A stretch of 64,000 bases of DNA from a virus. The stretch spans positions 32,001-96,000 of IMG/VR virus record IMGVR_UViG_3300023174_000057; one strand, given 5' to 3'. Shown here one piece after another: positions 30,873 to 40,349 of the stretch. Each line of letters starts with the position of its first letter. The first letter of the stretch is position 1. Both the position numbers and the translations under genes were made by a program. The notes under the pieces are model-generated. The model searched no databases, was not told the origin of the DNA, and was given only the letters and a program-made list of their open reading frames with translations.

Positions 30873-31575
30873 CGTTCTTTTGGCTATTCCCTTCCTACGC
30901 CCATGGACACCCTGCGATCCAAGGTAATCCGGTTGGCCCACGAGAACCCAGAACTACGTCCTCACCTTCTCCCTCTTCTCAAGACGGCCAGTAGATCCTT
31001 GGATCAACTGCGGGCGGACTTGGAAAAGGTGAGTCAGGTTTCGTTCGCTCGGAACGTGCAAAACAATCGCCGCTACACCCCGGAGCAGAAGGCGAAGGCG
31101 GTGGAGAAGGCCGATGCCATTCTTCAGTCCGGGGAGGTGGACTACCTCCTCAAGATTTCCAACCGTGATACGGACCGCTTGACGGACATCTTGACCTTGA
31201 TCCGTTCGGGGGGGCCGAGGATCGGCACGGCGCATAGCAAGGCTGAAGATGACGCCGAGCGATACGTCCGCGAATTGGAGTTCTTGTCCAAGTTCAGCAC
31301 CCTTCCCGAGATGGTCCCCGTGGACCGTCAATTGATGACGGGCAAGTTCCACACGCGGGATTTCGGGGGTCTGGATACGCTGGCTCAACGGATTCAGTCG
31401 GTCAACACCGAGAATCAACTCAGCCGCGAAGATTCCGAGAGGCTCTTGGCCGAATGGCGTTCCCGCACCTTCGGTCCCGACAGGGGCAGCGACCCCCTCA
31501 ATTTCGGGGATCGTTACCGGGATTGATGCCGTGGTCCACCGTCGCGCGGGACACCTCCGCTGATGTCGTGCGGGC
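30551..31575 (+). repeat. Imperfect 48-bp direct repeat (30551-30598 and 31528-31575)
   Basis: GCCGTGGTCCACCGTCGCG...GACACCTC...CGGGC in both copies. Confidence 0.7.
30903..31526 (+). CDS. LRSKVIRLAH-tagged hypothetical protein
   Basis: N-terminal MDTLRSKVIRLAHENPELRPHLLPLLKTAS. Confidence 0.75.
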   Translation: MDTLRSKVIRLAHENPELRPHLLPLLKTASRSLDQLRADLEKVSQVSFARNVQNNRRYTPEQKAKAVEKADAILQSGEVDYLLKISNRDTDRLTDILTLIRSGGPRIGTAHSKAEDDAERYVRELEFLSKFSTLPEMVPVDRQLMTGKFHTRDFGGLDTLAQRIQSVNTENQLSREDSERLLAEWRSRTFGPDRGSDPLNFGDRYRD

Positions 31576-32816: not shown

Positions 32817-33290
32817 ATGAGCCCCGAAGCTATCGTCATCGCCATCCTCGCCCTGTTCCCCCACATGAGCGGGAACAACCGCCGCTGCATCGAGACGCAG
32901 CAAGACCGCATCGTCCAACAGCTTCGTGAGGTATCCCAGCCCTACGAGCCCGGTGCGCCTGTCCCCCCGGTGGAGCTCACCGCTGCCGTTGCCTTCGCGG
33001 AGACGCACCTTGGGTGCGACATCCACGAAGGGGGCAACTGGGGTGCGCCCATCGACCCGCAGCACCGTCACACCGCCGGGACGCATATGCACGCCGTTCG
33101 TGCCCTCTCCCGCGGCTACCAGCAGTGCGGGGATTGGGACGGGGCCATCATGCGGTTCCGCACCGGGCTGTGTAACCCCCGGCGCAGCCCGTCGGAGCGG
33201 GTCCGCCAGCAGGGGGCGCACTACCTACGGGTGATCCACCGCATCGTGGAGCGGGTTCGTCGGCACGCCGAAGAAGTACACGGCGAATGA
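32817..33290 (+). CDS. Secreted lysozyme/SLT-like protein
   Basis: Hydrophobic N-terminus; AFAET and GDWDGAIMRFRTG resemble SLT motifs. Confidence 0.4.
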   Translation: MSPEAIVIAILALFPHMSGNNRRCIETQQDRIVQQLREVSQPYEPGAPVPPVELTAAVAFAETHLGCDIHEGGNWGAPIDPQHRHTAGTHMHAVRALSRGYQQCGDWDGAIMRFRTGLCNPRRSPSERVRQQGAHYLRVIHRIVERVRRHAEEVHGE

Positions 33291-33476
33291 TCTGTGAGGA
33301 GAGCGATTGGGAGCCGAATGAAGACGCTTGGCTCCGCCCCCTTCGTGGTGGGCGGGTGGTACGGCTTCGATTCAAGGGCGGGTACCGCCGCCCGTTCGGT
33401 TGGGAACATCCCCTCTGGGCGGGGGAGCGATCTCGGTTTTCGGTGCTCTCTGCCCGCCCGTCCGCCACGGGCGTAA
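33287..33476 (+). pseudogene. Diverged VR-like unit with a +1 frameshift (copy Z)
   Basis: LRPLRGG in one frame and WYGF...LGFRC in another, with 4 nt (CGGG) between the GGG and TGG codons. Confidence 0.5.
33469..33476 (+). promoter_or_regulatory. GGGCGTAA motif 8 nt before the first intact VR micro-gene
   Basis: Conserved motif and spacing. Confidence 0.6.
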
Positions 33477-33484
33477 GTACCCGT

Positions 33485-33667
33485 ATGAACCCCCCTACCA
33501 AGCCCAAGCCCACGGACACCCGTTACCTCGTCGTTAGCGGCGGCGGTTGGGACAGCTTCGTTCCGTCTTGGGTGCCCGTCGCGTCTCGCGGCTCGAACGT
33601 GCCTGCGAACCGTTACTTCAGCTTGGGGTTTCGGTGCGCGTTGCGGGGAAGGGAACCCCGAGTATGA
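33485..33667 (+). CDS. VR-like micro-protein A (60 aa)
   Basis: SGGGW...VASR...LGFRCALRGREPRV. Confidence 0.7.
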   Translation: MNPPTKPKPTDTRYLVVSGGGWDSFVPSWVPVASRGSNVPANRYFSLGFRCALRGREPRV

Positions 33668-33834
33668 ACCCCCCCACCACCAAGCCCACCGACACCGTCT
33701 TTCGCGGCGGCTGTTGGAACTTCAGCGGACCGTCGTGGGTGCGCGCCGCGTCTCGCAACGCGCTCGTGCCTGCTTACCGTGGCAGCGCCTTGGGGTTTCG
33801 GTGCGCGTTGCGGGGAAGGGAACCCCGAACGTGA
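33664..33834 (+). CDS. VR-like micro-protein B (56 aa)
   Basis: ATGA overlap; RGGCW...VRAASR...LGFRC. Confidence 0.7.
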   Translation: MNPPTTKPTDTVFRGGCWNFSGPSWVRAASRNALVPAYRGSALGFRCALRGREPRT

Positions 33835-34004
33835 AGCCCACCACCAAGCCCACCGCCGACACCCGTTACCTCGTCATCCGCGGCGGCAGTTGGAACATCC
33901 CGTGGTGGGTGAGCGCCGCGTCTCGCGGCACGCGCGTGCCTGCGTTCCGTGTCTACCTCATCGGGTTTCGGTGCGCGTTGCGGGGAAGGGAACCCCGAGT
34001 ATGA
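33831..34004 (+). CDS. VR-like micro-protein C (57 aa)
   Basis: GTGA overlap; RGGSW...AASR...IGFRC. Confidence 0.7.
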   Translation: MKPTTKPTADTRYLVIRGGSWNIPWWVSAASRGTRVPAFRVYLIGFRCALRGREPRV

Positions 34005-34180
34005 ACCCCCCCACCACCAAGCCCTCCGACACCCTCCTCCGCGTCTTTCGAGGCGGCAGTTGGCTCCACAGCGTACCGTCGAGGGGGCGCGCCGCGTCTC
34101 GCGACACGGACGTGCCTGCGTACCGTCTCAACTACCTCGGTTTTCGGTGCGCCCTTCGGGGAAGGGAACCCCGAGTATGA
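34001..34180 (+). CDS. VR-like micro-protein D (59 aa)
   Basis: ATGA overlap; RGGSW...AASR...LGFRC. Confidence 0.7.
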   Translation: MNPPTTKPSDTLLRVFRGGSWLHSVPSRGRAASRDTDVPAYRLNYLGFRCALRGREPRV

Positions 34181-34353
34181 ACCCTCCTACCAAGCCCTCC
34201 GACACCCGTCTCCGCGTCTACCGCGGCGGCGGTTGGAGCTTCAACGTGCCGTCGTGGGTGCGCGCCGCGTCTCGCAACGCGAACGGGCCTGCGTACCGTG
34301 GCAGCTTCATCGGGTTCCGGTGCGCGTTGCGGGCGAGGGAACCCCGAGTATGA
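34177..34353 (+). CDS. VR-like micro-protein E (58 aa)
   Basis: ATGA overlap; RGGGW...VRAASR...IGFRC. Confidence 0.7.
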   Translation: MNPPTKPSDTRLRVYRGGGWSFNVPSWVRAASRNANGPAYRGSFIGFRCALRAREPRV

Positions 34354-34556
34354 AGCCCCCTACCAAGCCCAAGCCCAAGCCCAAGCCCAAGCCCAAGCCC
34401 ACGGACACCCGTCTCCGCGTCTTCCGCGGCGGCAGTTGGATCAGCGACGTACCGTCGTGGGTGCGCGCCGCGTCTCGCAACGCGGACGAGCCTGCGTACC
34501 GTAACATCAACTTGGGGTTTCGGTGCGCGCTGCGGGGAAGGGAACCACGGGCGTAA
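34350..34556 (+). CDS. VR-like micro-protein F (68 aa) with (KP)6
   Basis: ATGA overlap; (AAGCCC)6 at 34365-34400. Confidence 0.7.
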   Translation: MKPPTKPKPKPKPKPKPTDTRLRVFRGGSWISDVPSWVRAASRNADEPAYRNINLGFRCALRGREPRA

Positions 34557-35965: not shown

Positions 35966-36472
35966 GTGACGTCTCTCCGTTCCAGCGTCATCCGCCTCGC
36001 CCACGCACAACCGGCCCTGCGCCCGCACCTCCTACCCCTCCTCAAGACGGCAGACGACGACGGCGACTACACCGACGAGGAGTACGCCTTCCTCCTGTGG
36101 ACGCGGAAGTACGAGCGCCGACAAGAGGCCGTGCTTCGCAAGTGGGAGGACAAGTACGAGCGGGAACTGAACGCCGTGGGTGACGGGTTGATCGCTGACC
36201 TCGAAGCCCTCAAGGCGCTGGTGCGCTTCTGGTTCTGGCAGCGCAAGGGCAACTACCGGGACACCCCCGGCGAGGAGGCCCCCAACTTCAAGGGGGCCGT
36301 GGACGCGATGTTCCACCGCCGCCGCAAGGCCCTTGTGGAAGTGAAGGACATCACGGATCGCATGGTCGCACGGGTCGCGGCGATCTCGGGTTCCGCCCTC
36401 TTTGGGGACGACTTCCTTGATGACCTGAACCGATTGGTGTCCGAGTACGAGCGGGAGTTCCAATCCCGGTAG
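35966..36472 (+). CDS. LRSKVIRLAH-tagged hypothetical protein
   Basis: LRSSVIRLAHAQPALRPHLLPLLKTA. Confidence 0.75.
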   Translation: MTSLRSSVIRLAHAQPALRPHLLPLLKTADDDGDYTDEEYAFLLWTRKYERRQEAVLRKWEDKYERELNAVGDGLIADLEALKALVRFWFWQRKGNYRDTPGEEAPNFKGAVDAMFHRRRKALVEVKDITDRMVARVAAISGSALFGDDFLDDLNRLVSEYEREFQSR

Positions 36473-40204: not shown

Positions 40205-40287
40205 GGACGGGTGCCCGAGCGGCCAAAGGGAGCAGACTGTAAATCTGCCGGTTCACGCCTACGTTGGTTCAAATCCAACTCCGTCCA
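40205..40287 (+). tRNA. tRNA-Tyr (GTA)
   Basis: GGACGGG/TCCGTCC acceptor stem, anticodon loop CTGTAAA, long variable arm, TTCAAAT T-loop. Confidence 0.93.
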
Positions 40288-40349
40288 CCGCCCGGTACAG
40301 GGACCACCGGGCACCCCCACACTCGGTCCCAGCACACACGGAGACACAC

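Follow-up and report, generated by a model that had tools for sequence, protein, structure and literature searches.

The 64,000 nucleotides analysed here (the window) correspond to bases 32,001-96,000 of a linear viral contig of 166,764 bases and 64.5% GC, rated 39% complete. Because the contig carries genes for a major head protein, terminase, primase, ribonucleotide reductase and a UvsX-like recombinase, we regard it as part of a jumbo phage. The phage is present in freshwater metagenomes, and comparison with cultured phages gave no match. No RNA data set is listed among those that contain it, a fact without bearing on expression. Within the window, six ORFs of 60, 56, 57, 59, 58 and 68 aa form an array linked via ATGA/GTGA overlaps, and two further copies lie at 2973-3304. 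Coordinates and overlaps agree with the original prediction, whose hand counts were also exact: 70 of the 71 variable codons end in C, which takes up 9 of 142 first and second positions. A profile search finds 16 such micro-genes, or cassettes, in four clusters on the contig. They are listed here together with a scaffold gene.

Window 33318..33476, plus strand: A0, diverged seventh cassette ORF preceding the array (profile E 2e-7).
Window 33485..33667, plus strand: A1, micro-gene of 60 aa, template-derived core 33539-33634.
Window 33664..33834, plus strand: A2, micro-gene of 56 aa, core 33706-33801.
Window 33831..34004, plus strand: A3, micro-gene of 57 aa with GTG start, core 33882-33971.
Window 34001..34180, plus strand: A4, micro-gene of 59 aa, core 34052-34147.
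Window 34177..34353, plus strand: A5, micro-gene of 58 aa, core 34225-34320, partner in the complex model.
Window 34350..34556, plus strand: A6, micro-gene of 68 aa with Pro-Lys repeat leader, core 34428-34523.
Window 3143..3304, minus strand: B1, older micro-gene, core with 10 non-adenine changes.
Window 2973..3146, minus strand: B2, micro-gene.
Genome G000:C1 9566-10387 (outside the window), minus strand: scaffold gene, 273 aa, FGE-sulfatase/CLec.
Genome G000:C1 9056-9563 (outside the window), minus strand: cassettes C0-C2, directly after the scaffold gene.
Genome G000:C1 about 3430-4058 (outside the window), plus strand: four old cassettes.

The core of A3 has suffered an in-frame 6-base deletion, and the core of A2 equals that of C1, which adjoins the scaffold, a case of duplication. 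The array had been called a promoter-driven operon, which is unsupported, since no sigma-70 promoter was found upstream of it. A gene of 157 aa (window 32817-33290) precedes the array and has no Pfam or PHROG match; the gene keeps this place in L035, L129 and L137, and the number of cassettes following it varies between strains.

Misassembly of population variants was checked as a source of the array and is not borne out. In the sequencing run that best covers the phage, possibly the source sample, exact-match assembled cassettes have a depth of 30-43 and their flanks 37-43, which is to say that the two are equal. Since one collapsed locus would divide the flank depth, the array is not collapsed population variation. 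The same cassettes occur, identical, in a sequencing run from a different study, and identical cassettes turn up again across samples. No within-population variation of cassettes was seen in the assembled contigs, which lose rare variants.

The micro-genes were originally thought to have no scaffold. This is wrong, as a truncated FGE/CLec scaffold gene is present on the same contig, 22 kb before the window start. Its product begins with about 100 residues of unknown fold, continues with an FGE-sulfatase domain (PF03781, positions 14-192) and stops five residues past GNVWEW, the three cassettes C0-C2 coming directly next. Micro-protein A6 matches PF03781 positions 197-254; because the two ranges complement each other, scaffold and micro-protein tile one domain. 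The early stop is not a sign of damage, since about 47 scaffold homologs (41-87% identity) all end 5-12 residues after a GNxWEW-type motif. The variable region is a separate gene and not the C-terminus of a full-length CLec protein, the scaffold ending before it throughout this set, and the scaffold gene of this phage holds no cassette-homologous DNA. The protein is split into a constant gene and interchangeable end-piece genes. At the stop itself (G000:C1 9566-9568), a one-base change has made the scaffold one residue shorter than in relatives, with the coupled start of C0 kept.

By Pfam and Foldseek, the fold is shared with SUMF1/FGE (PDB 1Y1E, 2AII) and with TvpA (PDB 2Y3C). The catalytic cysteine pair of FGE, conserved after GGS, lies in the segment that here forms the variable peptide; no such conserved columns were found in 45 micro-proteins, where this stretch is the hypervariable part. 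A model of the complex between scaffold residues 85-273 and A5 received a score of 0.92, the best control 0.00; the mark set for this score was attained by 58 of 80 solved complexes and by 2 of 110 mismatched pairs. The runs share at least 88% of their contacts, with a pLDDT of 76 or more for the partner. Because halves of a solved fold (FGE, TvpA) can pass by likeness, the modelled scaffold-peptide complex speaks for fit, not for binding. Among the roles that had been suggested for the micro-genes, complementation of a CLec scaffold in trans is the best supported.

In one related phage group, and likewise in one unrelated phage, the scaffold is preceded by a cassette joined to it in frame, a natural circular permutation. 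The fused loci are L010:8111-9196, L136:3688-4917 and L022:1456-2619, and the variable core differs among four strains. Among unplaced proteins there are polyproteins of 3-11 tandem variable segments; some consist of these segments only, others have them following a scaffold or preceding a truncated one (P0168, P0169, P0171, P0180, P0183, P0185, P0187, P0189, P0196, P0245, P0300). They represent the design of one body with many last strands in fused form; the two contigs examined are shorter than 3 kb. For the N-terminal domain of the scaffold, searches of the Atlas, of longer proteins and of five candidate host genomes gave no match, all of these being weak negatives. In one relative (L308:1568-6834) the genes before the scaffold are of MoxR-type AAA and vWA/CobT kind, which may be chance; this gene pair is linked to targets of diversity-generating retroelements (DGRs) in multicellular bacteria.

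The AAC-rich template that had been deduced from the cassettes exists. A 27-base adenine-free stretch of their backbone has an exact match in the deltaproteobacterial MAG KT_bin-2017. The bacterial contig CAISKJ010000074.1 starts inside a reverse transcriptase (RT) gene and carries the template directly behind the RT, together with a CLec target gene; a second target in KT_bin-2017, a caspase-CLec fusion, lies on another contig. The deduced template differs from the bacterial one only in the codon before GFR. Here phage cassettes, like one host target, read NTC (template-like) or TTG/CTG and never ATG, which points either to a 3' crossover point that varies or to additional template alleles. 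RTs homologous to this one (64-83%), accompanied by related templates, occur on contigs of up to 360 kb in relatives with genomes of 7-12 Mb. Because these RT-template loci lie on long bacterial contigs, the source DGR is bacterial.

Compared with the bacterial template, the six array genes differ at 81 of 140 adenine sites and at 13 of 430 other sites (p=1e-45); with the two copies at 2973-3304 included, the counts for all eight are 115 of 188 and 25 of 574. The comparison is not circular, because the template was found independently in a bacterium. Both the adenine bias of mismatches and a template adjoining an RT had been predicted, and they support the DGR origin of the cassettes. Unforeseen was that RT and template are bacterial and not phage-borne. 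The base spectrum of the cassettes is indistinguishable from that of host target genes (p 0.40 and 0.23, on a small host sample of 50 codons), down to a near absence of C at the second adenine of AAC. Residues at the AAC codons are led by Asp, Tyr and Ser, the leading residues measured for bRT (PMC12875486). Four further cassettes fit a second bacterial template family, with differences at 4-6 of 78 non-adenine positions, and match it as closely as that second bacterium's own target does.

By DNA match at non-adenine positions we gathered 73 distinct cassettes from about 20 phage contigs. They depart from the template at 1005 of 1752 adenine sites (57%) and at 307 of 5256 others (5.8%), and four of them show no difference at any of the 72 non-adenine sites. 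No stop codon occurs in the 73, and a coupled ATGA/GTGA start is found within 75 bases in 69 of them. Pairwise identity at adenine sites is 0.34 (sd 0.10; shuffled null sd 0.096) and exceeds 0.75 in only 2 of 2,628 pairs. Since its spread is about that of the shuffled null, nearly each cassette is a separate draw. Where scaffolds are 98-99% alike, orthologous cassettes share 8-9 of 24 adenine sites and 68-70 of 72 other sites; they are rewritten between close strains. C0 is a fixed variant, unchanged in seven strains. A 392-kb relative has more than 20 strongly diverged cassettes in 20 kb with both motifs kept, and the complete 390-kb relatives ERZ28593333 scaffold_4 and Ga0480368_0000008 carry the scaffold plus more than 20 cassettes in 20 kb. 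The ratio of non-synonymous to synonymous changes at non-adenine codons, about 0.53, indicates modest selection. In 70 cassette tails no conserved 3' stem-loop was found (mean z about 0), so canonical retrohoming signals seem to be lacking. For about 10 bases past the GFRC codons, one tail type agrees with the 3' end of host targets.

The arrangement is not confined to relatives of this phage. An unrelated phage of 139,665 bases and 56% GC, with a terminal repeat, is rated complete; it too has a truncated scaffold of its own, along with about 28 cassettes, which have a different leader and the same codon pattern. It carries no RT and no template. The templates nearest to its cassettes belong to Planctomycetota. 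Its exact template was not found among 29 bacterial template-like loci, the best of which differs at 10 of 80 non-adenine positions; these loci, most of them adjoining an RT, were obtained with a second search pattern, the first having given none. A third phage, of 38% GC, has at least 3 cassettes.

As to the host, large GC-rich genomes with kinase-CLec fusions suggest that the source bacteria are Myxococcota. The tRNA-Tyr gene at window 40205-40289 finds its best match among 26 candidate-host genomes in KT_bin-2017 (93%), the MAG that bears the template, and this may lend slight independent support to the host link. No CRISPR spacer link to a candidate host was evident in the 40 kb tested. 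A 1.3-kb "Terriglobia" contig (L035, RGPS01000530.1) was considered as host and rejected as a mis-binned piece of the phage locus, likely contamination.

We propose that the phage encodes a split CLec binder of FGE-sulfatase fold. One gene would provide the constant body, and each micro-gene an alternative last segment, bearing the variable binding surface and the RGGxW and GFR motifs that complete the fold. Body and peptide would assemble in trans, so that one infected cell makes at least 16 binders simultaneously. Their targets are probably host proteins, bound early in infection. The neighbours of the scaffold are small genes of no known function, and the terminase and capsid genes are more than 70 kb away. 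Scaffold and cassettes were found to have no obvious export leader and no virion-type tag common in the phage genome. Because of this genome position and the lack of such leader or tag, we infer cytoplasmic binders made early. The tag, about 25 N-terminal residues of LRSxVIRLAH type, is absent from scaffold and cassettes; it occurs on unrelated proteins at window 30903-31526 and 35966-36472 and in many other genes.

The variable cores would be products of the RT of a host DGR, not made by the phage. During infection, homology would bring them into the cassettes, in the form of mutagenised cDNA or of a copy of an already rewritten host target gene. Of these two routes we lean mildly towards cDNA. 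The 5' edge of the cassettes follows the template three bases further than two host targets do, a slight sequence hint of the cDNA route. A precedent may be seen in the editing of infecting lambda, by homology and without IMH, by host-made cDNA of an engineered DGR (10.1101/2025.03.24.644984). The target-like tail type, the missing stem-loop and the phage's own recombinase would be in favour of copying from host targets. Later the cassettes would duplicate and recombine, and useful variants would freeze and drift from the template. Host identity, transfer route, expression and function are all what we infer from these patterns. We consider the joint reading, a split CLec binder library refreshed from a host DGR, fairly probable. 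The wider claim is more tentative: several unrelated phage lineages may parasitise immune-type DGRs of their hosts, with micro-gene arrays that during infection take up mutagenised cDNA from the host and, plugged into one constant scaffold, yield an antibody-like library of anti-host binders; the adaptive sensor generator of the host would in this way arm the virus. It may well be so, and we do not yet lean towards it.

One alternative is a DGR of the phage's own: the 60% of the genome that is unsequenced would encode RT and templates, and the cassettes would be ordinary remote targets. The contig is indeed 39% complete, and phage-borne DGRs are the classic case, as in BPP-1. Such a DGR, however, would need two templates, each near-identical to a different bacterial template. 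No RT was found on the phage's own contig or in related phage DNA examined, and none in 20 capsid- or scaffold-related records, of which four are at least 90% complete (no cassettes were detected in these four). An unmutated template is missing among viral contigs, and 10 metagenome matches were all cassette arrays; 613 kb of partly redundant phage DNA contain no DGR spacer or template; and the complete 140-kb phage has cassettes without any RT. On this evidence a host DGR seems the likelier source of the cassettes, and a phage-borne one unlikely. The idea that cassettes act as decoy templates was rejected, as the spacer conserved among bacterial DGRs is absent. The peptides might also jam the DGR-diversified CLec sensors of the host by fold swap or mimicry, the phage scaffold being then a carrier or secondary partner; this does not exclude the binder library. 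The host DGR targets are caspase-CLec and kinase-CLec fusions, a class that has been put forward as antigen sensors in multicellular bacteria (PMC10907252, PMC7159879). The candidate host has more than 30 FGE-domain matches, and a copy of its current variable region would yield a matched mimic. Against jamming, a dedicated truncated scaffold has been conserved across about 47 homologs, sometimes with a cassette fused to it, displacement of a covalently attached strand would be unfavourable, and at least one host target seems to have a lipoprotein-like leader, which the peptides do not have. We think it improbable that jamming is the main role.

In Borrelia (vlsE/vls) and Neisseria (pilE/pilS), untranslated DNA cassettes serve as donors for one expression site. 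The phage resembles them in keeping variable segments in tandem next to a constant gene, and its cassettes could likewise be DNA donors, or frameshift-selected tails, for one full-length gene. Exchange between cassettes is seen (A2 = C1; a leader swap in run X8), and the cassette fused ahead of the scaffold in some relatives could be an expression site. In contrast to donors that are untranslated and homologous to the expression locus, the phage cassettes have coupled starts of their own and open frames, and it is apparently at the protein level that they join the body; the scaffold offers no homologous segment, and its stop is conserved. Most cassettes lie 25-56 kb from the scaffold. No in-frame slippery site was found, a recurring slippery-like heptamer in the GFR codons being out of frame. 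Intact frames, coupled starts and the conserved scaffold stop thus disfavour the suggestion of donor cassettes, which we hold to be very unlikely, and equally the suggestion of a passive archive of captured cDNA. For such an archive without protein function, or for an assembly artefact, one may point to the strong divergence of some copies and to the modest selection at non-adenine codons. The absence of stops, the coupled starts, the variant fixed in seven strains, the two motifs retained even in diverged copies, and a single-cassette depth equal to that of the flanks make it the explanation we can credit least.

The original prediction knew of no described system with such a layout, and this agrees with the literature searched (most subscription journals lay outside it): no description was found of a scaffold split off from a library of translated cassettes that is fed by the DGR of another organism. 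The layout is real, recurrent and apparently undescribed. Already known are remote targets within one genome, phage DGRs and the engineered DGRec. If our reading is true, a virus would here for the first time be seen to draw on a host DGR in nature. The protein would also be the first DGR-type binder organised as a two-part library, with many variants shown at once per genome. The case bears on whether multicellular bacteria have cellular DGRs that serve as anti-phage sensors, as phages that copy DGR output come into contact with them. Matching of cassettes to templates provides sequence-based host linking for uncultured jumbo phages, and for binder engineering, 55-residue variable peptides that complete one constant scaffold make an attractive format.

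As in the DGR of BPP-1 (mtd VR, avd, TR, brt), AAC codons in the last part of a CLec fold are rewritten specifically at adenines, and the residue spectrum is led by Asp, Tyr and Ser. In BPP-1, RT and template act in cis and rewrite one full-length tail-fibre gene, whereas here neither was found on the phage, and the variable segment is a separate multi-copy gene outside the structural module. The cassettes appear to act like a DGR target, yet seem not to form a DGR, as the variable region lies outside any full-length protein and no RT or template was found in cis. The source DGR is of the kind that diversifies CLec antigen sensors (Dore et al. 2024, PMC10907252; Kaur et al. 2020, PMC7159879), for which diversification in trans of remote targets within one genome is described. 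Those sensors are whole cellular proteins with the RT in the same genome, whereas in the present case a virus is on the receiving end and its protein comes in two parts. A parallel in mechanism is DGRec, an engineered DGR combined with recombineering (10.1101/2025.03.24.644984), in which host-made mutagenised cDNA likewise rewrites an infecting phage by homology and without IMH. DGRec is artificial and programmed by the experimenter; the present case would be natural, and to the advantage of the phage.
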